The position numbers were made by a program, and so were the translations under genes. Source: an uncultured Candidatus Saccharibacteria bacterium (lineage in GTDB: Bacteria > Patescibacteriota > Minisyncoccia > Phycocordibacterales > UBA5272). Taken from it: 64,000 nt of DNA. Position 1 is the stretch's first letter, and each line of letters opens with the position of its first letter. Under the pieces are notes generated by a model that was not told the origin of the DNA, did not search any database, and worked only from the letters and a program-made list of their open reading frames with translations. The stretch spans positions 24,705 to 88,704 of the forward strand of contig CAYWEW010000004.1 in the NCBI GenBank assembly GCA_964457775.1, read 5' to 3'. This document shows, piece after piece, positions 2,628-59,664 of this stretch.

Positions 2628-4226
2628 TCACACCTTCAATGATTTATGAAGCATACTTCTTCCGAGACCGTGTAACAAATTATCAAACGGCGCATTATGA
2701 AGTGGTGCCATATTTAAGAAAATCAATGAAGTAATAATCTTAATCTTTCTTAAATCATAATTATTATCTAGCAAAAACTGCTCGTAATGTTCTTTTACTT
2801 CTAATAAATCACTTTTTACAAAATAATCATAATACGCATGGTCCCCAGAAACACTTGCTGAAAACATGCCGTCCTTAATCAATGGGTAAGATAGTATTGT
2901 TCCACCGTATAGTTTTGCAAGATCATAATATAAGTCACCTACATGAACCAATCCACCGAACTCATGCCTCCAATCAAGAAGTAAGAATTTATCCTTTTCT
3001 GATGATTTATTTTTTGAAATTAAAATATTATCAAATTGCAAATCACCGTGAAAATTTGATGGTGTCCCGCCTGCAATGTAATCCCAATCAATTTTTGCTA
3101 ATAATTCTTTTGTTGTTGGGACTTCTACCCCATTAACAAAACGACTTTCTTCTTCTGTGTTTGCTTTATCGGCATACATTTTAAGACGCTTTTCTGTTTT
3201 TGTTTTATAAAAATCTAGACAAGCTTTACTAAAATCATCTTTTTCTTTTTCAGATAATTTTGTATTTTTCCATAAGTATGTTTTTGCCCACTCCAAAAAT
3301 TCTCCTGCGACTTTTTGATTAAGTGCACTATATACAGTTTGCCCATCAACCATTTTGTATGAATAAAAATGATTTCTATGCCCTTCTATTTCTGGGGAAA
3401 TACCTGATAGGGCATTGTTTGCTCTGTGATTTCTTTTTTCTGTTACTGTTTTGTCAGCAAAAAACTTAATAACTCTACCGTTAACAAAATAAAGGAATTC
3501 ATCATCTTTACTGAAATCAAACTTGTGCCCTCCCCCTGAGAAATTAATATTTGTTTCTATATAGTTATCCTTAGACCCTGTATCAAACCAAGTGAAACCA
3601 ATTGGGACCAGCTTCTTTTCAATAAGCCCCTTGAAACCATCTGTCATTTGAAGCTCGTTTGCTTTTATTTCATTACTTTGCTCCAAGGCTAAGAAAAAGT
3701 CTTTATAATCACGAATTCCTGCCAATCCAATAAAAGCAAATTTATTATCGGTTTTAACTTTAGTATCTAGTTGGCATACAAGATTATTTTTTATTTTAAC
3801 AGTACAATATTGTTCTGTTTCATGAACTGGTGCAATACCTAACCAGTTTTCATCAATCTCTGGAATATCCTCAAGAACTATTGTGTCCGCTGTACAAAAA
3901 ATAAAAGGTGATTGTAAATGTTTCTTACAAGCCAAAAGTGAGTAACCTGGTCCACTGCCTGGTCCACTATATTTATCAACTTCAACAAAAGTAAACTTTC
4001 TATCTGGATATGCAAGTGTGAGATAGTCAACAACTGTATCCTTTTTATGCCCAACTGCTATTATTATTTCGGTATCTTCAGGAAACTTTTCGATAATATA
4101 AGAAATAACCGCCTTATTATTAACTGGTAAAATTCCTCTGTTGATTGAATCAGTGAAGTGACTTTCTTTTGGATCAACACCCGCTGCCAATATACAAACT
4201 TTATATTTATTATCTCCTATTTTCAT
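2628..4226 (-). CDS. bifunctional sugar-phosphate nucleotidyltransferase (N-terminal) / APH-choline-kinase-like phosphotransferase (C-terminal)
   Basis: N-terminal VCILAAGVDP...GPGYSLL nucleotidyltransferase fold. C-terminal HGDLQFDNILI Brenner kinase motif and DLYYDLAKL. Confidence 0.65.
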   Translation of the reverse strand: MKIGDNKYKVCILAAGVDPKESHFTDSINRGILPVNNKAVISYIIEKFPEDTEIIIAVGHKKDTVVDYLTLAYPDRKFTFVEVDKYSGPGSGPGYSLLACKKHLQSPFIFCTADTIVLEDIPEIDENWLGIAPVHETEQYCTVKIKNNLVCQLDTKVKTDNKFAFIGLAGIRDYKDFFLALEQSNEIKANELQMTDGFKGLIEKKLVPIGFTWFDTGSKDNYIETNINFSGGGHKFDFSKDDEFLYFVNGRVIKFFADKTVTEKRNHRANNALSGISPEIEGHRNHFYSYKMVDGQTVYSALNQKVAGEFLEWAKTYLWKNTKLSEKEKDDFSKACLDFYKTKTEKRLKMYADKANTEEESRFVNGVEVPTTKELLAKIDWDYIAGGTPSNFHGDLQFDNILISKNKSSEKDKFLLLDWRHEFGGLVHVGDLYYDLAKLYGGTILSYPLIKDGMFSASVSGDHAYYDYFVKSDLLEVKEHYEQFLLDNNYDLRKIKIITSLIFLNMAPLHNAPFDNLLHGLGRSMLHKSLKV

Positions 4227-8456: not shown

Positions 8457-9230
8457 ATGAAATTTACTGTTATAACTCCAACTTACAAAAGAGCAAATAA
8501 ACTGGTTAGAGCTGTTAATTCGGTACTTAGCCAAACATACACTGATTGGGAAATGATAATTGTAAATGATTCCCCGCATGATAATACATATCAAGGTTTT
8601 GCCTCATCAATCAATGACTCACGTATTCACTACCACATAAATGATACAAATCGTGGAGTAAATTATTCTAGAAATTTTGCTATGGACAAAGCATCTTCTG
8701 GTAGTGATTGGACTATATTTTTGGATGACGATGATTACTTAGCGCCTGATTCACTACAAACCTTCCATGATCTTATTTTGCTACATAGTGGAAAAAAGTG
8801 GTTCATCACAAATCGTGCATATGTAGATGGGAAACCAGTCACTCAATTTCCTGCCCCAGAAGCTGAATATTCTTATATATGGGACTGCTTAATTCTTAAG
8901 AGAGGAAAGGGTGATGTGACTCATTGTATAGAAACAAAATTACTCACAACAAACCATATTAGATATTCTAGACATATAAAACAAGCCGAGGAGTGGATCT
9001 TTTACTATCAAATTTCACTTTTAGAAAAATTATTTTATCATGACCACAATAGTACAATTACGGATGGTTATGATATAGAAAATGGTCTCAACTTTAGAAA
9101 AAGAACTCGGGAGGAGCAATTTAACACTCTTATGAAATTTGTACACGAAGGTCAACATTTAAAACTAATTGGGCGTCCAACGTTTATTTTGTACTTATTT
9201 ATGAGATTAATTAGATTATTAATAAAATAA
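8457..9230 (+). CDS. family 2 glycosyltransferase
   Basis: FTVITPTYKRANKLVRAVNSVLSQTYTDWEMIIVNDSP and FLDDDDYLAPD (DxD). Confidence 0.75.
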   Translation: MKFTVITPTYKRANKLVRAVNSVLSQTYTDWEMIIVNDSPHDNTYQGFASSINDSRIHYHINDTNRGVNYSRNFAMDKASSGSDWTIFLDDDDYLAPDSLQTFHDLILLHSGKKWFITNRAYVDGKPVTQFPAPEAEYSYIWDCLILKRGKGDVTHCIETKLLTTNHIRYSRHIKQAEEWIFYYQISLLEKLFYHDHNSTITDGYDIENGLNFRKRTREEQFNTLMKFVHEGQHLKLIGRPTFILYLFMRLIRLLIK

Positions 9231-9231
9231 G

Positions 9232-10158
9232 CTATATTTTATTATTAACAATATCTTCAATATAATTCTTAATGCTTTTTTTAGCCTTCCAACCTAGTTC
9301 GCGCTTTGCTCTAGAAACATCCACAACTGTATTCATTCTATTACCTTTACGTTCTGGCAACATAACGATTTCTAATCCGAACATTTTTGCTATTTCAAGA
9401 ATACTAAATCCTTCTTCAGCTCCAAGTCCGTAATCATCCCCTTCTCCTTTTTCCCCAACAAGAACAAGGCCTTTAACAATATCATCTATATGGGTAAAAT
9501 TTCTAACTTGTAGTCCTGGACTTACCACATTTATAGATTTTTTATTTTTAAAATTCTCTTTAAAAATACCAATAACTGTTGCATACGATCCCTTTGAAAT
9601 TTCTCTTGGTCCATATACATTATAAAAATAAGTAATTGCATATTTGAGCCCAAACCACTGACTGTAATTACGAACAAGTTCTGTATTACTTGCTTTTGTC
9701 CACGCATACGGACTTTGATCACGACCAATACCGCCATCAGCAAATTTAGTACTTGAACCAGCATAAATAAGTTTTACATTATTTATTCGACAAAACTCGA
9801 GCACTGCGAATGTTCCATTTTTATTATAGTCCCAAACTATATCCAAATCATCAAAACTTTTTTCTACTCGAGAATATTCACCTAAATGAAAAATAATGTC
9901 TGGGATTTTAGTAACATGTTTTTTAATGTTTTTTGTGTGTCCTTTTATATACGTTGCCCCTTTTATGTGATTTTCTTCTTTTCCAGTAAAATAATTATCT
10001 AATGAATAAACATCATATGAAACATCTTTAACAAGAGCTTCAATTAAGTGGGAGCCTATAAATCCAGCACCGCCTGTAACTAGTACTATTTTTTTGTTTG
10101 TTTTTGGGGATTTAGTCATGTAAGTATTCATAATACAATAAATAGATAATGAATACAA
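9232..10158 (-). CDS. NAD-dependent epimerase/dehydratase (extended SDR)
   Basis: VLVTGGAGFIGSHL Rossmann motif. Start probably the internal Met before TKSPK. Confidence 0.65.
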   Translation of the reverse strand: MYSLSIYCIMNTYMTKSPKTNKKIVLVTGGAGFIGSHLIEALVKDVSYDVYSLDNYFTGKEENHIKGATYIKGHTKNIKKHVTKIPDIIFHLGEYSRVEKSFDDLDIVWDYNKNGTFAVLEFCRINNVKLIYAGSSTKFADGGIGRDQSPYAWTKASNTELVRNYSQWFGLKYAITYFYNVYGPREISKGSYATVIGIFKENFKNKKSINVVSPGLQVRNFTHIDDIVKGLVLVGEKGEGDDYGLGAEEGFSILEIAKMFGLEIVMLPERKGNRMNTVVDVSRAKRELGWKAKKSIKNYIEDIVNNKI

Positions 10159-16507: not shown

Positions 16508-17860
16508 TTATTTATTTCCGAATATTGATTTAAAGAAAGCAATTAATCTTGTATCTTTAACTAGTTTAGTATGTGTTAAATTAGTAGATGTTGAATTTAT
16601 ACTATTTTTATTAGTACTTGTTGACACTTCGATAACACGACTACTTATTTTCTTTTGAATATTATTAACTGCTAATTTTGTAGAAGATAATACTTTATTT
16701 ATTTCTTCTCGACCGGATTGCACAACAATTCTTTGATTATCCTCTGTTACATTTTCCTCAATAACATATCTAGTTACTTCTTCCATTGTTGGAAAAAGTA
16801 TTTTAATAATTGTGCTGGTGCTTATAGTTGTACTTGCAAAGCCCATAGCCATGCTTGATATATGTGTCACACTATTACTAGCAAGTACAGTATTTTTAGG
16901 AAATGAAAAATTTGCTCCATCAACAGAAAGTTTCCATTGAGATAAGTCTAATTCGTAATTATTTGAATTTGAAATATCAATATATTTTCCGTATTTACCT
17001 GTGCCAATTTTTGCAATTGAAATTTCTGGTGTAACAACTCTAACCAACATTCGACCAGTACCTGTTACATATCCGTTTGTTCCTTCTACCGAAACAACAT
17101 ATTTCCCTGGATAAGCATATCTATATATCGTTGAACTACCTACCCCTTGCCCTCCATCACCATATGCCCATGTGTATGTAAGATTATCAATATTTTTCCC
17201 AGCATGATTTAGACCAAAAACTGAAAAATTTGTATCTGCTCCAGCAATTACAATTTTATCTTGAGGTAGATAAAGTACTATGTCTGCAAGTGGAGCCGAC
17301 ATCTGTGCTACTGTTGCTTGAGTATTTGTTATCGATACAGACGAAGATGTTGTACTATATTCTAATACTGATAACTGATTAGTATTTCCAGGAGTTGCAC
17401 TACCTCTTACCCACACACTATCTATTTTTGATAATGTACTTCCGTCATTATTACCACCAATAGAAACAGTATAATTAGTAGCATCTACTTCTTGACCACT
17501 AGAAGTCTGCTTAAGTGAGACGTGTTCACCAGAATTAGAAAGTGAGAAGGCACTGTCGTAAATAATTCCAGAATAGTTTGGATTGTCTTCTAGAAATTTT
17601 GTCGGATTATCTACAATGACGGCATAACCGCCTACTGGTAAAATTGACCCGCCTGAATAACTTGCAATGCTGTGATTTGTGTTACTTTCAAAAAACTTCC
17701 ATGAAGTAATATCTACACCACCACTCGTGTCATTGAATATTTCTATCCATTCACGTGAAGTATCAGACCCTAAAGGGTCATACATTACTTCAGAAATATA
17801 AATTGCCTCAACTTGAGAAACGTAACTTATTAATGAAAAAATAATAAGTAGTTTCTTCAT
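16508..17860 (-). CDS. secreted protein with lamin-tail-domain (LTD) and PKD-like domain
   Basis: Signal peptide MKKLLIIFSLISYVSQVEA. ISEVMYDP..EWIEIFN LTD signature. YTWAYGDG...YAYPGKYVV PKD-like stretch. Confidence 0.55.
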   Translation of the reverse strand: MKKLLIIFSLISYVSQVEAIYISEVMYDPLGSDTSREWIEIFNDTSGGVDITSWKFFESNTNHSIASYSGGSILPVGGYAVIVDNPTKFLEDNPNYSGIIYDSAFSLSNSGEHVSLKQTSSGQEVDATNYTVSIGGNNDGSTLSKIDSVWVRGSATPGNTNQLSVLEYSTTSSSVSITNTQATVAQMSAPLADIVLYLPQDKIVIAGADTNFSVFGLNHAGKNIDNLTYTWAYGDGGQGVGSSTIYRYAYPGKYVVSVEGTNGYVTGTGRMLVRVVTPEISIAKIGTGKYGKYIDISNSNNYELDLSQWKLSVDGANFSFPKNTVLASNSVTHISSMAMGFASTTISTSTIIKILFPTMEEVTRYVIEENVTEDNQRIVVQSGREEINKVLSSTKLAVNNIQKKISSRVIEVSTSTNKNSINSTSTNLTHTKLVKDTRLIAFFKSIFGNK

Positions 17861-17863
17861 AAA

Positions 17864-19771
17864 TTACTCCTCAATCAATTTTCTGAGAATATCTTCCGCC
17901 ACCTCCTTTCTTCTCTTTTCTTCTTCTTTATGTTTAATATTATTTTCTACTGATACCCTTTTAACTTCTTCTTGTTTCTTGTTTATTGAATCATCACTCT
18001 TATCCTTAACCTCTTCTTTTATTGGAGAATTTTCACTCAAAGCTTTTGCCAGAGCATCTTTAAGAGACATGGCTGGCTTATCATCAAATTGTGTTGTTTG
18101 TGGAGTTGTTTTTTGTGCAAATGTTTTTGAGTTATTTATCTGATTGTTGGTGTGAGTATGCTTTGAATATGAATTATGAGTGGATTTGTCTACATTTATT
18201 TTAACTTCTGTTTGTATAATTGGTTGAGTAACTTCAATTGCTACTGGCTTTATTTCTTGTTTAATAACCTCAACCACTTCTGGTTTCTTTTCAATTTCTA
18301 TCTTTTTTACATCATCATATCTTTTTAAATTATTATCAAATCTCTTAAGATTATCACTACGTTTTGGTGGGTAAGGATTATCGTTTTTATATTCATTAAC
18401 TTTCAAAAACTTTCCATCAGGCAAAGCCGTTTCTACTTTTGGTTTATCAACTTTTGGAACTGGTTTGTAGAATTCTGCAACCTCATCTTCAACCATAAAC
18501 TTTGGTTTTGCGTATGTTGTACGTGAAAAATTTATCACCGCTTGCATGTGCGACTGAACAGGTTTTTGTATTGGTGGAAGTGTCTTAGCAGAAAATGGTT
18601 TTGACCCCTGTCCATCAATCATAAGTCGTATATAAATTTGATAAGCTGACAGATTAACAAAATCATCTAGTATAAAAAATGGCGCGAATTCTTTCTCAAA
18701 TACTTCAGCGTCTGTAGCTCCAACACGAAATGTAATCATTGTTCCCACGTTTCCAAACACCGCAGCCTTAACATCATCGGTCATCTGCTCTATATATTGA
18801 TGTGCGACAGTAAGTGCAAGTTTATATTTTCTTGCCTCTGAAAGAATACTTGCGAATGATTCATTGGCAAAGTTTTGAAATTCATCCACATAAAAATAGC
18901 ACGGAGGTAATTTTTCTTGAGTAGTTAAATCGACATCTGCTCGTGACATTGCAGCCAAGTATATTTTAGTTATCAAAAGTGACCCGAGTAAATTAGCGTT
19001 CCCTTCTCCCACTTTTCCTTTAGAAAGATTCACAATAAAAATCTTCTTCTCGTCCATCATTTTACGTGCATCAAATGATGTCTTCTTTTGTCCAATAATA
19101 TTTCTAATTAATGGATTAGAAATAAACTGACCGATTTTATTTTGAATTGATGGTGCAAGTTCTTGTGCCGTTTTATCCGTATAATTTGCATATTCATTTA
19201 CCCAAAAATCTTTTACGGTTGGGTCAGTTACATTAGAAACAATAAATTTTCGATACTCTTTATCAAACAACATTCTGTTTACACCAAGAAGAGTTTGTCC
19301 GTCATTCTCCAGGAGGGCAAGGATAATATTATTAAGCACATACTCCATACGAGCAGAAAATGTTCCTTTACCGTCACCATCAGTAAATATTTTCTTAAAT
19401 GCTGACATCATACCGTTTGCAAGAAGATATCTTTTTTCTGCTGGAACTTTTTCTAACATATTAAGACCCATCGGAAACTCACCATCAAATGGCGCAAAAT
19501 AAACAACATCCTTAATACGTGACTCTGGAATATGGTCGAGCAACTTTTCAGCAAGTGAACCATGTGGATCAATAACGAAAACACCTTCACCGTTATTTAT
19601 ATCTTGTATAACTAAGTTTTCAATAAGAACAGATTTACCCATACCGGACTTACCAATGATATAAGAATGCTTTGTTCTATCTATTTCTTTGATACCAAAT
19701 GTAAGCTGTTTATTACGATAATCAATTTTGCCTATATAGGTAACTTTTTGTGATGGACGATCGTCTGACAT
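17864..19771 (-). CDS. DUF87/HerA-FtsK superfamily P-loop ATPase, TraG/VirD4-like, with Lys/Glu-rich low-complexity C-terminus
   Basis: HSYIIGKSGMGKSVLI..GVFVIDPHGS Walker A context. Conserved LTVAHQY...FGNVGTMITFRVG. Confidence 0.5.
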   Translation of the reverse strand: MSDDRPSQKVTYIGKIDYRNKQLTFGIKEIDRTKHSYIIGKSGMGKSVLIENLVIQDINNGEGVFVIDPHGSLAEKLLDHIPESRIKDVVYFAPFDGEFPMGLNMLEKVPAEKRYLLANGMMSAFKKIFTDGDGKGTFSARMEYVLNNIILALLENDGQTLLGVNRMLFDKEYRKFIVSNVTDPTVKDFWVNEYANYTDKTAQELAPSIQNKIGQFISNPLIRNIIGQKKTSFDARKMMDEKKIFIVNLSKGKVGEGNANLLGSLLITKIYLAAMSRADVDLTTQEKLPPCYFYVDEFQNFANESFASILSEARKYKLALTVAHQYIEQMTDDVKAAVFGNVGTMITFRVGATDAEVFEKEFAPFFILDDFVNLSAYQIYIRLMIDGQGSKPFSAKTLPPIQKPVQSHMQAVINFSRTTYAKPKFMVEDEVAEFYKPVPKVDKPKVETALPDGKFLKVNEYKNDNPYPPKRSDNLKRFDNNLKRYDDVKKIEIEKKPEVVEVIKQEIKPVAIEVTQPIIQTEVKINVDKSTHNSYSKHTHTNNQINNSKTFAQKTTPQTTQFDDKPAMSLKDALAKALSENSPIKEEVKDKSDDSINKKQEEVKRVSVENNIKHKEEEKRRKEVAEDILRKLIEE

Positions 19772-19901: not shown

Positions 19902-20158
19902 TTATGCAACTTCTGTTTCTTGAACTTTTTTATTGGGACAATTTTTCTCGAGTGCAATGAGAATCAATTTCCTCAACTCTTCACGACGAACGAATAGGTT
20001 CTTTGAAAGCCCGAGACTAACTCCCGTCCTCGGGTCTTTTTTGTCCGCCAAACCAGCGTCAAGGAAAAGAAATTGCGTGAACACTTCTCTTGCATTCAAT
20101 TCGTTCACAGGAAGACTGAAATTTGGGCGGTGAAAACGGAGCAACTCTCTCGAACTCA
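19902..20158 (-). CDS. hypothetical small protein (85 aa) in the GC-rich island
   Basis: AGGGGA Shine-Dalgarno 7 nt before the ATG at 20158. The longer listed ORF start is unlikely. Confidence 0.4.
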
Positions 20159-20242
20159 TTTGTATTCCCCTTTTTAAGAACATACAGCCGAGACGGCCGA
20201 AACTATACACTACCATTTTTCTCAAAAATTGCAAACAGTATA

Positions 20243-20296
20243 AAAATAAAAAGACCCCCATCTCGCATGACATTGTCATTTGATTTGGGGGTCTGA
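20243..20296 (-). terminator. Rho-independent terminator of the SPFH gene
   Basis: AGACCCCCA...TGGGGGTCT stem with a nested ATGACAaTGTCAT palindrome, followed by TTTTATTTTT on the minus strand. Confidence 0.55.
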
Positions 20297-20311
20297 CCAA
20301 TTACGGTCTTG

Positions 20312-21256
20312 TTATGCAGCCTTCAGGCCAGCAGTCTTGCCGGCCTCGCTCGTCGTCGCCTTTACAGCTGCGACAGTGTTGATCAAGTCACCGGCTGAAC
20401 GTGTGTCGACGATGACCATGTTGCCGTGAGCAGCCGCATTCGAAATGGTATCCAGACGATTGGTCTCGTTTAGGAACTGCATCGCTTCTTGCGAAGTGAG
20501 TCCAGCTTTTGTCATCGTTTCCATCGCTTGCTCGAGACCCCTGGCCATTGCTTCACGCATCTTAGCCATACCTTCACCTTGAAGTCGCTTGCTTTCCGAC
20601 TCTGCTTCTGCAACACCAACGAGTTTGATACGCGCAGCTTCTGCTTCGTTCACAGCCGCTTCTTTGAACCTCTTTGAAGCGATGACGCGGTTGAATGCGT
20701 CACGTACATCGTCGCTCGGCTGCGGTTGGTCAACAAGAACATTCTCGATGATATAGCCATAGCGTTCAAACTGCGTACTCAGAGCCTCTTTCACCTGCCC
20801 TTCCAGCAACTCGCGATTGACGTAAAGTTCCACCATGTCCATACCCGACGCCGTCTGACGAACGTTGTTGAGTACGTATGAAGTGATCTGCACTTCTGGT
20901 TTCTCGAGTTCGTAATGTGCCTTAACGGCACCCACCGAATCATCGCTCGCACGATACTGCACCTTAACGGGAAGTGTCATGAAGGCGTCGTCCTTGGTCT
21001 TGACACTTACATTGGTCTTTGTTTCTTGTTGTTGCAAGTTGACGAAATGTCTAACCGATGTTATCGGCCAAGGCATCTTGAACTGTAGACCAGGCAAACG
21101 TGCACGTGCGTGCGGTTTCCCGAAGGTCTCGAGGATACCTGCCGTCTTTCCACGAACGATGAAGATCGAGGTGAAAATAAGCCAGAACGTAACGAGAACC
21201 ATGACCATTTTCCACGAGAAGATGAAACCGACGATGTTGCTTAGGATGATTTCCAT
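20312..21256 (-). CDS. SPFH/band-7 domain protein (stomatin/HflC-like)
   Basis: N-terminal TM segment, then ...DAFNRVIASKRFKEAAVNEAEAARIKLVGVAEAE. RBS-supported ATG at 21256. Confidence 0.75.
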   Translation of the reverse strand: MEIILSNIVGFIFSWKMVMVLVTFWLIFTSIFIVRGKTAGILETFGKPHARARLPGLQFKMPWPITSVRHFVNLQQQETKTNVSVKTKDDAFMTLPVKVQYRASDDSVGAVKAHYELEKPEVQITSYVLNNVRQTASGMDMVELYVNRELLEGQVKEALSTQFERYGYIIENVLVDQPQPSDDVRDAFNRVIASKRFKEAAVNEAEAARIKLVGVAEAESESKRLQGEGMAKMREAMARGLEQAMETMTKAGLTSQEAMQFLNETNRLDTISNAAAHGNMVIVDTRSAGDLINTVAAVKATTSEAGKTAGLKAA

Positions 21257-21306
21257 TGATTGAACTCCTGTAGTGGTTGACAAAAAACATCTATATAAAC
21301 AGATGT

Positions 21307-26850: not shown

Positions 26851-27321
26851 TTACCAAGCAAAATGCGCAAAGGCTTTGTTAGACTCTGCCATTCTATGTG
26901 TATCTTCCTTCTTCTTCACAGCACTTCCTTCGTTATTTGCTGCAGCCATAAGCTCATCAGCTAACTTAAGACGCATTGCCTTTCCTTTCTTTGCATTAGC
27001 TGCATCAAGAATCCAACGTAATGCGAGCATGAAACGACGATCTTCACGAACTTCGCGAGGAACTTGGTAGTTTGCTCCACCGATACGACGTGAACGTACT
27101 TCTGTAACTGGTCCAGCATTACGAAGAGCTGCTTCAAAAGTTTCCATAGGATCCTCGATTTTAAGCTTTTCCTTAATAACATCAAAAGCACCGTACACAA
27201 TATCACGTGCTGTGTTTTTCTTTCCACCCTCCATCACATAGTTAATAAACTTAGATACTTTAAGTGAATTATACTTAGCATCTGGCCCAACCATATTTCG
27301 ATTTTTAACTTTTCTACGCAT
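26851..27321 (-). CDS. rpsG: 30S ribosomal protein S7
   Basis: Full-length match, including [12 protein letters not shown] and [13 protein letters not shown]. Confidence 0.9.
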
Positions 27322-44252: not shown

Positions 44253-46028
44253 TTAAATAACCTTAAACCCTATTTCTTTTAAATATTCAAAAGTAGAATT
44301 ATAAAAATCAGGATTTCGTGTTGGATCATTTTTATCACCATCAGGTATAACAATTACCATTCCTTGTCTTGCTCTAGTTAAAAGAACTCTGTAAGCATTT
44401 TTAAGATAGTTTTGTCGTTCTAACTTTCTGATATGATTCCAACGACTACCAACAAATGACCAATGTTCCCAACCATTATTGGTATATCTAAAATCTGCAT
44501 CCCAAATTACACAAGACCAATCTAGTTCAAGACCTTGAACATGAAACTCTGTTGCAACATCTTCGAGGTAATAAGATGAACGTACATCATCCTTTCCATC
44601 TAAAAACCAATGAATTGGATCAACTGGAGATTTAACATCTATAGCATATGGTTTTAATCTTTCTGCTTGAGAAGAAACCATAATTCCGTAACGTTCCGAA
44701 CCCCTCGCCTGCTCTTTTAACCATTGTTTCGCTTTGGAAACATCTCGAGTAATAACCATTGGGTATTTATTTTTTATATTATTTAAAGTATCTTGTGCGT
44801 CATTTAATTTAATATCAAGCAATTGTTTAAAAAGTAGAGAGACGTGCTCAGCACGAAATGAACGCATAGAAACATCAAGATGTAACTCATCTCTAGTTAC
44901 AACTAGAGGGTTATATTTTAATTCATCCAATACTTTTCCAGCTCCATACTCACTATCAGTTAGTCTAGAAGAAATATAAATATGCCAATCTGGAAAAGAT
45001 CTATTCATGGACTCAATCCATTCACTAATACCAGCTTCTCCGGTATTAATCTCTTGACCCCCACCAACAAGACAAACAACAACGGCCCAATCTTGATGTC
45101 TATCTAAACACGATATAAGAAACTCGGGTTCTGATTGTTTAAAATTAGGCATACCCTTTTTCCTATGCATAAAATTTACTGTTTGTTGTAAATCCCATGC
45201 ACGTTGTGATTCATCAAATAATACAACGTGCTCAATTGGTGGTTTTTCAAAATCAACCAAACATTCATCACGAAAATTATGAACGTTCTGAATAAACATT
45301 TTAACATTACTCATTACTTCTCCTTTTTTAATTTTATGACCTCGTTCCTTTTCATGTCTAACCTTATCTCGTGTTAGTGCTTCACGTAAGATTGCAACAA
45401 GTGGTCCATTACCAGAAAGAAAAACACTATACAAATCATTATCTTTATCTATATGTTTAGTTGCAATATTTAGTCCGACTAATGTTTTACCAGCACCTGG
45501 TACACCAGTAACAAAACAAATTGATTTATGTGATTTATTTTTAGATAAATTTATTATTTCTGAAACTGTTTCTGATGTTTTAGTTAAATTAACTGCGCCA
45601 GCATCACTACGAGATATGTTAACCACCGAATGACCATTGTACAAAGACATCGCCGCTTCAATGATTGTTGGTGTAGGGCAATACCTACCCATCTCCCATT
45701 GTTTTATATCAATATCTTTATCCTCAACAAATATTAAAATATTATTTATTGCTTGATTAAGTAATTCACTGTTACACATCACAGGAATAAGCAGCTTATC
45801 GTTTTGTAATGTAGTAGAAACAACAGTAACAGCACTCTTTGATTTAGTAGCTATTAGTACTGGAGCAATATAATGTTCATGACTTGACTCATGAAAGTTT
45901 TTTAAATCTAAAGCATAATCCCAAACTTGATCTATAGATGATGATAAAAATTCTTTATCGCCAACTTTAAATTCAAGTACAAATACTACTGGTCCAATAA
46001 GTAATACAACATCAATTCTTTTTGCCAT
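44253..46028 (-). CDS. DUF2075-type protein: PD-(D/E)xK-like N-terminus plus SF1-helicase-like ATPase
   Basis: IDVVLL...VLEFK (D...ExK), [34 protein letters not shown]. Possible frameshift at the 5' end (see findings). Confidence 0.55.
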
Positions 46029-56822: not shown

Positions 56823-57587
56823 TTATGGCTTTATCCCACTTGTTTCCCATAAAACATCAAAATGTAACTTCATCAAATCTGCAAAATCTTTTGAATGAAC
56901 AATAAAACCAAAAATTTCCTTATGTGAAGATATAAAAGATACCTTGTCGCCGTATATTGTATAGCCCATTGAAATCGAGGAATTATCCTTTAAATACTTT
57001 CTTTTTATTAAGTTATCTTTACCTTCCCAAATATAATCACTTGATGGTTTATTCTTTTGTGGCCAGAGTGCATGTATGGTTATTTTCTCCTGTATTCTTC
57101 TGTTATTAAAACGAATTAATGACTCCTTCCCTAAGACAGAAAGCATTTCATTATAAGGCCACATAGTATAAATTGTTTTACCTTTATTCCATAAAATATC
57201 ATTCAAAAGATGGCTGAGTCCTAACTTACCTTCAAAGAACTTGATTGTTGGGTTTTCGGTTCTTGTTGAATTTAACAAGTCAGGAAGCATTTTTAGAAAC
57301 ATTTCTTTTTTCTCTGAAAGAGACTCTATGTTTTCTTGTAGCACTTCACCAACTTGTCTTACATCATCCAGTGCAAAATATGATTTGTTATCTAATTTTC
57401 TTTCAACAATTAGTCCTTTCTTTTTAAGTAATGACAAGTGGTCATAAGTAGACGGACGAGTGAGCGATAAACGCTCGGATAACATTCTTGGTGTTGCTTC
57501 TCCATTTTCCAACAGCTCTTTATATATCTTTTGTGAAGAAGGGGGAAGGTTTAGACTTTTTAAAATGTCTTCTAGGTTATATTTCAT
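56823..57587 (-). CDS. TrmB-family transcriptional regulator
   Basis: LPPSSQKIYKELLENGEATPRMLSERLSLTRPSTYDHLSLLKKKGLI. Confidence 0.6.
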   Translation of the reverse strand: MKYNLEDILKSLNLPPSSQKIYKELLENGEATPRMLSERLSLTRPSTYDHLSLLKKKGLIVERKLDNKSYFALDDVRQVGEVLQENIESLSEKKEMFLKMLPDLLNSTRTENPTIKFFEGKLGLSHLLNDILWNKGKTIYTMWPYNEMLSVLGKESLIRFNNRRIQEKITIHALWPQKNKPSSDYIWEGKDNLIKRKYLKDNSSISMGYTIYGDKVSFISSHKEIFGFIVHSKDFADLMKLHFDVLWETSGIKP

Positions 57588-57696
57588 AAATTAGATATTT
57601 GTCGAGTTTCGTCGACAGTTTAACATATTGCTATTATGGGTGTAAAGTTCACTCAGTAGTTCGTTACATCAACCAAAACAAAAGAAAGGAAACATC

Positions 57697-58239
57697 ATGA
57701 TCACCAGAATCAAGAAGTCGCTGGCTTATGTCCCAGCGTCGCTTTTGGAAGCCACCAGCTTCCTCGTCTCCATCGGTCAGAAGCAACGCGAGATTAATCG
57801 TCTCAAGCGTGAAGCCAAACAAAAAGTGGAGGCGATCAATCTCGCTACCAAGAAGTCGGTCGATGAACTGACAAAAGAACGTGATACGTTCTTCACGGCT
57901 CTGTTCGCCTTCGCTTCTCCAAGGAAGGCTGAGCTGACGAAGGTCACCCGTTCGCAAAAAACGAACGCTGGAACCTTCGGTTGGCGCTTCACCACTCCTT
58001 ATGTCGATATCGCAGAAGGCAAAAGCGATCAAGACATAATCGCAACACTGAAGAAAGCTGGTCTCACTGACTACATCCGCGTCATCGAAGAAGTTGACCG
58101 CGAGGCAATGCTTCGTGATCGTCCGGAAGTGAAAGGTGTTTCCTATTCCAATCGTGACGAATTCTTTGCCAAGCCCAAGCTTGCAAAAGAAGATGGTCGT
58201 GCAGAAGAGCTCGTCAAAACCGAAGCGATTGATGTTTAA
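57697..58239 (+). CDS. Mu Gam-like host-nuclease inhibitor / DNA-end-binding protein
   Basis: AYVP, IGQKQREINRLKRE, FGWRFTTPYVDI...LKKAGLTDYIRVIEEVDREAML are collinear with phage Mu Gam. About 50% GC. Confidence 0.6.
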   Translation: MITRIKKSLAYVPASLLEATSFLVSIGQKQREINRLKREAKQKVEAINLATKKSVDELTKERDTFFTALFAFASPRKAELTKVTRSQKTNAGTFGWRFTTPYVDIAEGKSDQDIIATLKKAGLTDYIRVIEEVDREAMLRDRPEVKGVSYSNRDEFFAKPKLAKEDGRAEELVKTEAIDV

Positions 58240-58257
58240 TCGTTTCTGGTAACCCTT

Positions 58258-58294
58258 AAGCTGGATTCACTTCGTGAATCCAGCTTTTTATTTA
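58258..58294 (+). terminator. Rho-independent terminator of the gam-like gene
   Basis: AAGCTGGATTCAC-ttcg-GTGAATCCAGCTT followed by TTTTATTTAT. Confidence 0.65.
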
Positions 58295-58295
58295 T

Positions 58296-59018
58296 CTAAA
58301 TTCTTTTATATAGAAGTTTAAATATTTCTTTCTGAAACTGTGCGAGATTTTTATTTTCAATAATTACACCTTGTAACTGACCAATATCAATGAAAGCAAC
58401 TTTATTACCATAAATTAATTGTATGCAATCTTGATTAAAAATAGATTCATTCTTTGGAATAACTTTTGTGGCACGCTCCAATCGTTTCTGTTTTATTTCA
58501 GCAGAAGACCAATTAGAAATAACAAAGCGCTCCAACTGTTTCTTGTCACGTATAGCTCTATAATCTTTTGGTAAAAACTTATTAACGTACTCAGTATCTG
58601 TTTCTGATGTATACCTATAGAAAATTCCTCCTTTCTTTAGAGATTCAACAAGGTCAGAAAAGATAGAAGTGACTCCGGACTTTCCTTGCACTGTTTTGAT
58701 AACTGTTTCTAAGTGAGGAGAGCTATACTCTTCGCTAAGAATATCAATACTTGCGTGTGTTTCTTCGTAAATTTTTTGTGCACGTTTTTTTAGAGCATCC
58801 GGTGATAGGGGGATATACACTTTTTTCGAACCAGATGAGCCTCGTGTGACTAATCCTTTCTCTAGAAGAGAGTCTATTGTTCTATAGGCATAAGGTCTGT
58901 GCAACTTAGTTCTGCTTACTATATCACTAATACTAAGAGGTCCACACTTAATAAGAAGTATATATACGTCTGACTCTTTATCATTAAGTCCCAAAAAAGT
59001 TAGAAAATTGTAATTCAT
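58296..59018 (-). CDS. TrmB-family transcriptional regulator
   Basis: LGLNDKESDVYILLIKCGPLSISDIVSRTKLHRPYAYRTIDSLLEKGLV. Confidence 0.6.
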   Translation of the reverse strand: MNYNFLTFLGLNDKESDVYILLIKCGPLSISDIVSRTKLHRPYAYRTIDSLLEKGLVTRGSSGSKKVYIPLSPDALKKRAQKIYEETHASIDILSEEYSSPHLETVIKTVQGKSGVTSIFSDLVESLKKGGIFYRYTSETDTEYVNKFLPKDYRAIRDKKQLERFVISNWSSAEIKQKRLERATKVIPKNESIFNQDCIQLIYGNKVAFIDIGQLQGVIIENKNLAQFQKEIFKLLYKRI

Positions 59019-59189
59019 GTACTAATAATAGTACATTGTTACATTTATGTAAAGTACTTATAAAATAATACTTAAATAACATTCATGAATATACATATTA
59101 CAAAAAATACACAAAATAATACATGAATAATTATTATTTGATAAAGTTACCCCGGAAGAAGTTCATTGAAACAAACAAAGGAGAAAATC

Positions 59190-59405
59190 ATGAAGGTTAT
59201 TAAGGCAAAATCTTGGATGATATACGAATGCGGTGGATGTAAGTCTAAGTTAGAGGCTGATATAGGTGATGTGTGGTGCTCAGCAGGAACAGATATAAGC
59301 GGTACATATGACGAAGATTATTATATAACCTGTCCTGTATGTGGAACAAATAGACATCTTTCATATAAAGAAGTCCCACCAAAAGCAAAGAAAGACCACT
59401 ACTAA
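59190..59405 (+). CDS. small zinc-ribbon-like protein (CxxC...CPVC)
   Basis: AAGGAG RBS and ATG at 59190. Paralogous to the next gene. Confidence 0.4.
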   Translation: MKVIKAKSWMIYECGGCKSKLEADIGDVWCSAGTDISGTYDEDYYITCPVCGTNRHLSYKEVPPKAKKDHY

Positions 59406-59415
59406 GGGAATCAAC

Positions 59416-59664
59416 ATGAAACTAATCGAAGAAGGTAATTGGAAAATTCCTTGGTCAATGGAAGTGGTCTGCGTAGAAAAAGGATGTGGTGCAAAAGTTC
59501 TGATTGAAGAAAAGGATGTAAAGCCTGTCGATTATGATGCATATAATTATTATGCAGACTGCATGATTTGTGAGAGGAAAATACTTATTTCAGAAAAGGA
59601 TGTGCCGCAAAGAATGAAAAATGTGCTTGATAAAAAAAGGAAACATCGAGACTCTGACTGGTGA
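59416..59664 (+). CDS. small zinc-ribbon-like protein, paralogue
   Basis: AAGGGAA RBS and ATG at 59416. C..GC...C.IC spacing parallels the previous gene. Confidence 0.4.
   Translation: MKLIEEGNWKIPWSMEVVCVEKGCGAKVLIEEKDVKPVDYDAYNYYADCMICERKILISEKDVPQRMKNVLDKKRKHRDSDW

Follow-up and report, generated by a model that had tools for sequence, protein, structure and literature searches.

A Gam-family gene, a divergent TrmB-type regulator gene and a conserved intergenic element on chromosomes of Patescibacteria

The stretch of DNA analyzed here, referred to hereafter as the window, comprises 64,000 nucleotides from an uncultured Candidatus Saccharibacteria bacterium and carries a gene for a 180-aa protein of the Gam family, the family of the DNA-end binder of phage Mu. 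The gene is divergent from one for a TrmB-family regulator, and the region between the two contains a conserved dyad element that is presumed to be the regulator's operator. We consider it reasonably probable that this Gam is a domesticated, regulator-controlled, Ku-like DNA-end binder of the host chromosome. An initial annotation had left two options, a prophage remnant and a domesticated end-protection factor. The conserved module, its operator and its position favor the second. The first did not hold up, because the position of the locus with HU, RNase Y and ClpP is conserved, the ratio of nonsynonymous to synonymous substitutions (dN/dS) stands at 0.06, and Mu-like genes are absent from the vicinity, in the window as in the 10-kb flanks of relatives. 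The features of the locus are as follows.

57697..58239, plus strand: Gam-family gene, 180 aa with an ATG start, recognized by its open reading frame (ORF) and by Pfam, PHROG, PDB and BLASTP homology
56823..57587, minus strand: TrmB-family regulator gene, 254 aa, divergent from Gam, recognized by Pfam TrmB and a fold match
57599..57625, no strand assigned: conserved element TTGTCGAGTTTCGTCGACAGTTTAACA between the TrmB-like gene and Gam, from an alignment of 11 regions
57620..57648, plus strand: putative sigma-70-type Gam promoter, TTAACA-17-TAAAGT, from a consensus scan
57617..57646, minus strand: putative promoter of the TrmB-like gene, TTTACA-18-TAAACT, from a consensus scan only
58258..58294, plus strand: intrinsic terminator with a 13-bp stem, a 3-nt loop and a T run
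58296..59018, minus strand: a further TrmB-family gene of 240 aa in convergent orientation to Gam, Pfam TrmB 50.3 bits

Membership in the Gam family was found by every kind of sequence comparison listed above. The protein, whose gene has an AAGGA ribosome-binding site (RBS) 6-7 nt 5' of the ATG, matched Pfam PF07352 (Phage_Mu_Gam) over profile positions 3-149 of 149 (87.1 bits, cut-off 28.3) and PHROG 491, 'Mu Gam-like end protection' (E 2.5e-24). PDB entry 2p2u, titled 'Host-nuclease inhibitor protein Gam, putative', was matched with E 6.6e-9 by the single sequence and, over residues 11-157, with E 2.2e-13 by a family profile; its sequence is distant and the tail of the window Gam lies outside the match. 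BLASTP against Mu Gam itself (NC_000929, Mup10) gave 27% identity over 149 aa (E 6e-13). The two proteins are similar in length and collinear over residues 4-149, with the shared blocks (window protein/Mu Gam) AYVP/AYVP, IGQKQREINRLKRE/IGDLQREASRLETE, FGWRFTTPYVDI/VSWRVRPPSVSI and LKKAGLTDYIRVIEE/LERLGLQRFIRTKQE, and the core motifs G92, R97, V103, P160 and the FGWR block are kept. The homology and the collinear blocks reported in the initial annotation are therefore confirmed, profile searches included.

An AlphaFold 2 model of the window Gam (mean predicted local distance difference test, pLDDT, 83.5) has a helix at residues 16-80 and strands at 86-160, that is, a predicted long helix followed by a beta domain, as expected for the Mu Gam family. 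The tail, residues 167-180, falls below pLDDT 50 and is probably disordered according to the model. The last 20 residues (KPKL..DGRAEELVKTEAIDV) are kept across the clade and are missing from Mu Gam. Only the closest 20 or so of 149 representative relatives carry this acidic T(E)AID(V) tail, and many of the remaining ones end in a Lys-rich tail. Conservation of the terminal peptide suggests that it is a docking site for a partner protein.

The divergent gene encodes a protein that matched Pfam TrmB with 36.2 bits (cut-off 25.6) and has a TrmBL2-like architecture of winged helix, long helix or coiled coil, and phospholipase D (PLD)-like C-terminal domain. Its AlphaFold 2 model (pLDDT 85.6) matched TrmBL2 over the full length (5bpd, E 1e-13) and also matched TrmB (3qph, E 5e-10, and 2f5t, root-mean-square deviation 3.3 Å over 146 columns), so that both the profile and the predicted fold place the regulator in the TrmB family. 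It shares the winged-helix TrmB domain and the full-length TrmBL2 fold match with TrmBL2 and TrmB of Thermococcales. Unlike Thermococcales TrmB, it is found in candidate phyla radiation (CPR) bacteria, no sugar-binding subdomain was detected, and it appears to be tied to a single presumed operator beside Gam rather than to sugar-metabolism genes. Gam does lie between two TrmB genes, as had been noted, both matching Pfam TrmB and both on the minus strand. The second of them occurs in some of the related loci but not in all (it is missing in L010, L013, L016 and L017, where L-numbers denote related Gam/regulator loci compared by their surrounding DNA) and is a neighbor, not a part of the conserved module.

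Gam and its regulator recur together. A search of 5.8 billion proteins returned Gam relatives in 64 clusters at 45-100% identity, nearly all of about 180 aa. Members named in their sources were all Patescibacteria (Pacebacteria, 'Patescibacteria group'), and a profile search added Moranbacteria. The sources annotate these proteins as 'Gam family'; the kind of protein is already known. An identical copy of the window protein is encoded on a contig of the metagenome assembly GCA_013558375.1. The divergent TrmB-Gam pair was found in about 22 distinct Patescibacteria loci in which Gam is 33-92% identical to that of the window. The gene is thus not an orphan, as it had first been called, but part of a conserved module with a TrmB-like regulator and an operator. 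Where Gam identity is 52-88%, the gene order is HU, TrmB, Gam, an optional insert of TrmB, phosphoribosyltransferase and Nudix genes, RNase Y and ClpP; HU and the TrmB-like gene of about 250 codons share one strand, Gam runs divergently from these two, and downstream of it RNase Y and ClpP lie in convergent orientation. At 33-41% Gam identity the pair persists amid wholly different genes (L023, L024, L038, L039 and L040). When the search was started from the regulator, homologs at 66% and 39% identity adjoined Gam, and one at 38% identity without an adjacent Gam is probably a paralog.

Two of these loci deserve separate mention. In L019 the Gam stop (9084..9611) overlaps the start of a gene of the 2H-phosphoesterase/2'-5' RNA-ligase superfamily (9608..10138), which is also GC-rich (GC at third codon positions, GC3, 0.55), and the two may form a two-gene operon. 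L021 (CAZNTM010000012.1, 9983..13369) lies on a contig of 55% GC labeled 'uncultured Gammaproteobacteria', where Gam adjoins YmdB-like, RNase Y and ClpP genes. The closeness of Gam and RNase Y echoes the CPR arrangement, and the taxonomic label looks wrong.

The element between the two genes has the consensus TTGTCG-N5-CG-N-CGACAG-N-TTAACA, with a dyad TGTCG-N8-CGACA. Most positions of the block TTGTCGAnTTTCGnCGACAGTTTAACA (57599-57625) were invariant or nearly so in the 11 orthologous intergenic regions aligned, and in the same regions a mostly conserved GTAAAGT follows about 17 nt after it. Because synonymous sites in coding sequence are near saturation between the closest genomes, conservation of the element is meaningful. 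The distant loci, with Gam identities of just 33-41%, carry it too, either unchanged or altered at 1-3 positions. When 241 million metagenome records were scanned for the motif, nine loci matched, eight of which adjoin an ortholog of the TrmB-like gene, with Gam on the other side where the contig continues; the ninth, a fragment of 62% GC, looks like a chance match. No match was present in 2.9 million viral contigs. Within the 64-kb window the motif is unique (none is expected by chance), so that neither a second copy nor a regulon was seen there.

The element abuts or overlaps the putative -35 of Gam, and it overlaps the predicted -10 of the divergent TrmB-like promoter. Across orthologs, TTAACA and GTAAAGT are for the most part conserved, and we take TTAACA-17-TAAAGT as the putative Gam promoter. 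In the opposite direction, the predicted -10 of the regulator gene overlaps the Gam -35, with the palindrome just downstream. A GTTC block at 57650..57666 in the Gam 5' leader is kept in all relatives. It was considered as a LexA/SOS box and rejected as such, the GTTC-N8-GTTC repeat being present in the window and L008 only. Downstream of Gam, the strong terminator noted initially was confirmed as a hairpin at 58258-58286 (dG -22.6 kcal/mol, z -8.1 relative to shuffled sequences), and nearly every relative has a hairpin of its own just 3' of the Gam stop, L019 being the exception. Rfam searches of 57400-58450 at permissive thresholds gave nothing credible.

Given these parts, Gam would be a monocistronic unit with its own promoter-like site, RBS and strong terminator, and the TrmBL2-like regulator would most likely bind the dyad element between the two genes. 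Since the element overlaps the regulator promoter and touches the Gam -35, binding would both autoregulate the regulator and gate expression of Gam. That the regulator binds the dyad, controls itself and controls Gam is the simplest reading of their co-conservation, from which the pairing of regulator and operator is inferred. By analogy with Mu Gam, a Gam homodimer would then cap the ends of double-stranded DNA for the cell rather than for a phage. Ends so capped would be shielded from exonucleases and could be held for ligation; Mu Gam reportedly promotes end joining with E. coli ligase. Candidate roles are repair of chromosomal breaks, restraint of nucleases and interference with linear phage DNA, and the choice among these cellular processes, like the direction of the regulation and end binding itself, is put forward conditionally.

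Gam is under strong purifying selection. Compared with L008, the closest sampled relative (Gam 88% identical), dN was 0.072, dS 1.2 and dN/dS 0.06, values like those of neighboring genes. Amino-acid identities between the window and L008 (88% for Gam and TrmB, 66% for ClpP) had hinted at recombination. Recent recombination between the two was rejected, since DNA identity is flat at 68-78% across the region; related loci are 65-78% identical at the DNA level. Mean pairwise identity was 0.61 for Gam and 0.60 for the regulator, and 0.77-0.82 for RNase Y, ClpP and HU.

The surroundings of Gam are those of an ordinary CPR chromosome. Besides Gam, 35 window ORFs were scanned for phage genes by Pfam, ten of them also by PHROGs (six hypothetical ORFs near Gam among the ten). 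No phage structural or Mu-like genes were found among the 35 by Pfam, which identified sugar-nucleotide epimerases, MurB, S12, ComEC, DinB, RecJ, a CCA-adding enzyme, HU, a peroxiredoxin, RNase Y, ClpP and a TrwB-like coupling protein; the ORF at 26851..27321 was read as ribosomal protein S7 by its translation and not by a profile match. Five tRNA genes are present. The absence of other phage genes from the window, stated in the initial annotation, was borne out except that two ORFs matched PHROG families of unknown function: the ORF at 2628..4226 matched three such families, and a zinc-ribbon ORF at 59166..59405 matched phrog_2834 (E 8e-10), the only phage-like match near Gam. Adjacent Mu-like genes, which had been named beforehand as the sign of an ordinary prophage, were absent from the window, and neither Mu-like nor other phage genes were found in the 10-kb flanks of relatives. 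Two peptide patterns used to search the 2.9 million viral contigs turned up no member of this Gam clade, and the closest Gams of phages share no more than 30% identity with that of the window. The zinc-ribbon ORF (79 aa) and a second small ORF at 59341..59664 (107 aa), both on the plus strand and called as genes of 71 and 82 aa, contain CxxC pairs and sit between the second TrmB gene and the phosphoribosyltransferase gene.

The composition of the Gam gene bears on its origin. Its GC content is 49.5% and its GC3 0.536, compared with 35.5% and a mean gene GC3 of 0.288 in the window (z 3.0 for GC and 2.8 for GC3); the two genes flanking Gam have 32-33% GC. The high GC first noted was correct (49.5%), while the 33% background quoted with it was not, the window being nearer 35%. 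The proposal that this GC is foreign failed, because the excess is found in all full-length relatives despite near-saturated synonymous sites. Every full-length relative measured had a Gam +3 to +19 points above its flanks, on backgrounds that span 36-55% GC. The smallest excess, about +2 points over the aligned segment only, was that of a 30%-identical Gam in L032/L034.

Recoding the Gam protein with background codon usage gave 37.9% GC and a GC3 of 0.238, from which the observed values of 49.9% and 0.536 differ with z 9.6. Nearly all of the GC excess is therefore synonymous choice, and amino-acid composition was rejected as its source, accounting for only about 2 of 14 points. All relatives have a common codon pattern in which TTC, ATC and CGY are preferred and ATA, AGR and TTA avoided, and at four-fold sites C exceeds G in most of them, a pattern that has the appearance of codon selection and not of bulk GC pressure. 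At a dS of about 1.2, neutral sites have had time to drift AT-ward and an imported GC signature should have decayed. The GC excess is a maintained property, not the trace of a recent import.

Two other sources of the bias were considered. Translational bias of the ribosomal-protein kind found no support in that form: a codon adaptation index (CAI) based on S12, ClpP and HU left Gam outside the top ten genes; at four-fold sites the S12, S7, HU and ClpP genes favor A/T whereas Gam uses C/G. When genes were ranked instead by the Gam-derived codons (TTC, ATC and CGY vs TTA and ATA), S12, ClpP, S7 and HU came right after the SPFH gene described below and Gam. The preference for C-ending codons that relatives have in common nevertheless suggests codon selection of some kind. 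An overlapping gene on the antisense strand, which might have accounted for the high GC3, was rejected because the codon-complementary antisense frame, fully open in the window, L008, L013, L021 and L023, is interrupted by 1-5 stops in the remaining relatives checked.

Apart from Gam, the window has a single GC outlier, an SPFH/Band-7 (HflK-like) gene at 20312..21283 on the minus strand (GC 50.6%, GC3 0.562), whose codons follow the same pattern as those of Gam (TTC 92%, ATC 82%, CGT 59%, no TTA). The ORF downstream of it (19902..20300, minus strand) is somewhat GC3-rich (0.44). In relatives, a gene for an uncharacterized membrane protein just 3' of ClpP is also GC-rich, with a GC3 of 0.51-0.62 against a median of about 0.3. 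It was located as follows.

L005, 16240..17145: GC-rich membrane-protein gene
L010, 13052..13921: GC-rich membrane-protein gene
L013, 6169..7023: GC-rich membrane-protein gene
L016, 6891..8129: GC-rich membrane-protein gene
L017, 6480..7490: GC-rich membrane-protein gene

This membrane protein had no credible Pfam match and does not resemble the SPFH gene. These genomes seem to contain a small set of genes that retain GC-rich codons. If so, a few genes (Gam, the SPFH gene and, in relatives, the membrane protein) keep GC- or C-rich codons in AT-rich genomes across deep divergence, and for that reason GC islands in such genomes should not be read as evidence of horizontal transfer without caution.

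A stronger version of the favored reading holds that a broad group of Patescibacteria adopted a phage Gam permanently as a DNA-end guardian in place of Ku, with a dedicated TrmBL2-like repressor and operator and with strong lineage-wide selection for C-ending codons. Gam would then cap chromosomal breaks for ligase-mediated rejoining or for shielding from exonucleases. We put this forward tentatively, as possible rather than probable. No Ku family was matched in a Pfam scan of Gam at E<=1, which returned Phage_Mu_Gam alone, and no LigD-type ligase gene was found in the Gam neighborhood, either in the window or in the flanks of relatives.

Several observations weigh against a domesticated end binder, or at least against its simple inheritance. 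Fold searches with the monomer model failed to retrieve either 2p2u or Ku, so the putative Ku-like fold of Gam rests on sequence profiles and the literature. The codon bias is unlike that of ribosomal protein genes and does not by itself mark Gam as highly expressed. The L021 Gam (32% identity) has no TrmB neighbor and is the sole exception to the pairing. Across ten loci, identities of different genes correlated poorly (rho 0.30 for Gam and RNase Y, -0.04 for Gam and TrmB, 0.15 for RNase Y and ClpP). In L032/L034 the slot holds a Gam only 30% identical to that of the window (L034, 2303..2857; Pfam 58 bits), with the exact operator kept, the regulator 61% and RNase Y 81% identical; this Gam reflects either in-situ replacement or very fast divergence. 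Taken together with the poor correlation, it indicates that inheritance is not simply vertical. The discordant histories would fit an old exchange of alleles between related CPR lineages, or else unequal rates of change, and an arms-race role for Gam is possible.

The last point leads to a second explanation, in which regulator and Gam form a small exchangeable module in phage-host conflict and alleles are swapped under diversifying pressure. Gam might cap incoming linear phage DNA and block its circularization or replication, or it might restrain a host nuclease. Such a module is consistent with the discordance between Gam, TrmB and the adjoining housekeeping genes in their histories, as it is with the 30%-identical Gam in situ between flanks of 61-81% identity, the several unrelated chromosomal contexts, and the faster divergence of Gam (0.61) than of RNase Y, ClpP and HU (0.77-0.82). 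However, PADLOC gave no match for Gam and only weak helix-turn-helix (HTH)-level matches for the regulators, the closest pair has a dN/dS of 0.06, the position does not shift among members of the closer clade, and neither mobile-element genes nor flanking repeats were noticed, though no systematic search for repeats was made. We regard this explanation as rather unlikely, though it deserves more weight than the two that remain.

The first of these supposes that the Gam fold was recruited away from DNA ends, for example to act as a nucleoid-associated protein or to join the TrmBL2-like, chromatin-type protein as its partner or co-regulator, with the acidic tail making protein contacts. Constant pairing with a TrmBL2-like protein would suit such a role; the titles of the matched PDB entries call TrmBL2 an archaeal chromatin protein, HU is a neighbor in many loci, and the conserved T(E)AID(V) tail is missing from Mu Gam and most other Gam clusters. 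Retention of the Mu Gam core motifs argues otherwise, and divergent pairs that share an operator are usually a regulator and its target rather than two subunits of a complex. We think recruitment of this kind improbable. Least credible of all is a recent prophage remnant or an import from a GC-richer donor whose high GC would be unameliorated foreign DNA: Gam is indeed a GC outlier in the window and bacterial Gam orthologs are held to derive from prophage insertions (PMC1378119), but the locus and module are alike in many species, the GC excess is common to all full-length relatives on backgrounds of 36-55% GC, a dS of about 1.2 in the closest pair allows time for neutral drift toward AT, no Mu-like genes lie in the window or in the flanks of relatives, and the clade was not found in the viral contigs searched.

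The preferred reading, a Gam domesticated by the host, can be set beside known systems. Mu Gam, a homodimer related to Ku, binds DNA ends and protects linear DNA from exonucleases, and common ancestry of Gam and Ku, with a homodimeric end-binding mode, has been proposed (PMC1378119). Unlike Mu Gam, the window Gam is chromosomal, appears to be monocistronic and lies outside a phage and a Mu-like early operon; it has a TrmB-type regulator, a conserved presumed operator and an extra acidic C-terminal tail. Like the prophage Gams of Proteobacteria (E. coli O157, Haemophilus, Neisseria), it resides in a bacterial chromosome, and bacterial Gam genes have been regarded as prophage-derived (PMC1378119). 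Those genes sit in Mu-like prophage remnants, whereas the window Gam sits among housekeeping genes with a dedicated regulator. In naturally competent bacteria, protection of linear DNA has been proposed as a role of such Gam orthologs (PMC1378119); the CPR window also encodes ComEC. The window Gam differs from the bacterial Ku-LigD system in having neither a sequence-level match to Ku nor an adjacent LigD-type gene. Bacterial Ku has a basic tail, which the Lys-rich tail of many Gam relatives resembles, whereas the tail of the window clade is acidic.

Gam counts as a phage protein and has found wide use as a reporter of double-strand breaks and in base editors, and the DNA-repair equipment of CPR bacteria is poorly known. 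Our literature search on Gam in Patescibacteria, Parcubacteria and Saccharibacteria found nothing relevant, and the literature searched gave no account of a CPR-wide Gam lineage fixed in the chromosome, of the dedicated TrmB-type regulator and operator that go with it, of the acidic tail or of the persistent codon anomaly. If the reading is true, a chromosome-fixed Gam that is kept by purifying selection and tied to a regulator of its own would clearly exemplify host adoption of a phage end-binding protein. The 180-aa protein, the 254-aa regulator and the 27-bp operator are testable parts. The Gam locus ranks well above a routine prophage remnant; its function is extrapolated, and the surprise is moderate rather than fundamental.

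Some further features of the region were noted. ClpP falls into two classes among the window, L005, L008, L013, L015-L017 and L033, with 91-96% identity within and 64-73% between classes; the classes are out of step with similarities of RNase Y or HU, which suggests allele exchange or paralog replacement at the locus. Elsewhere in the window, 44253..46028 (minus strand), between DinB and RecJ, encodes a 591-aa Schlafen-group-3-like helicase (Pfam SLFN-g3_helicase, 283 bits) that matched the PADLOC candidate defense protein PDC-S41 with 869 bits. At 16508..19771 (minus strand), a gene for a TrwB/TraG-like type IV coupling protein (635 aa) adjoins one for a secreted protein with lamin-tail and PKD domains (450 aa), and this pair lies immediately upstream of the GC-rich SPFH gene.

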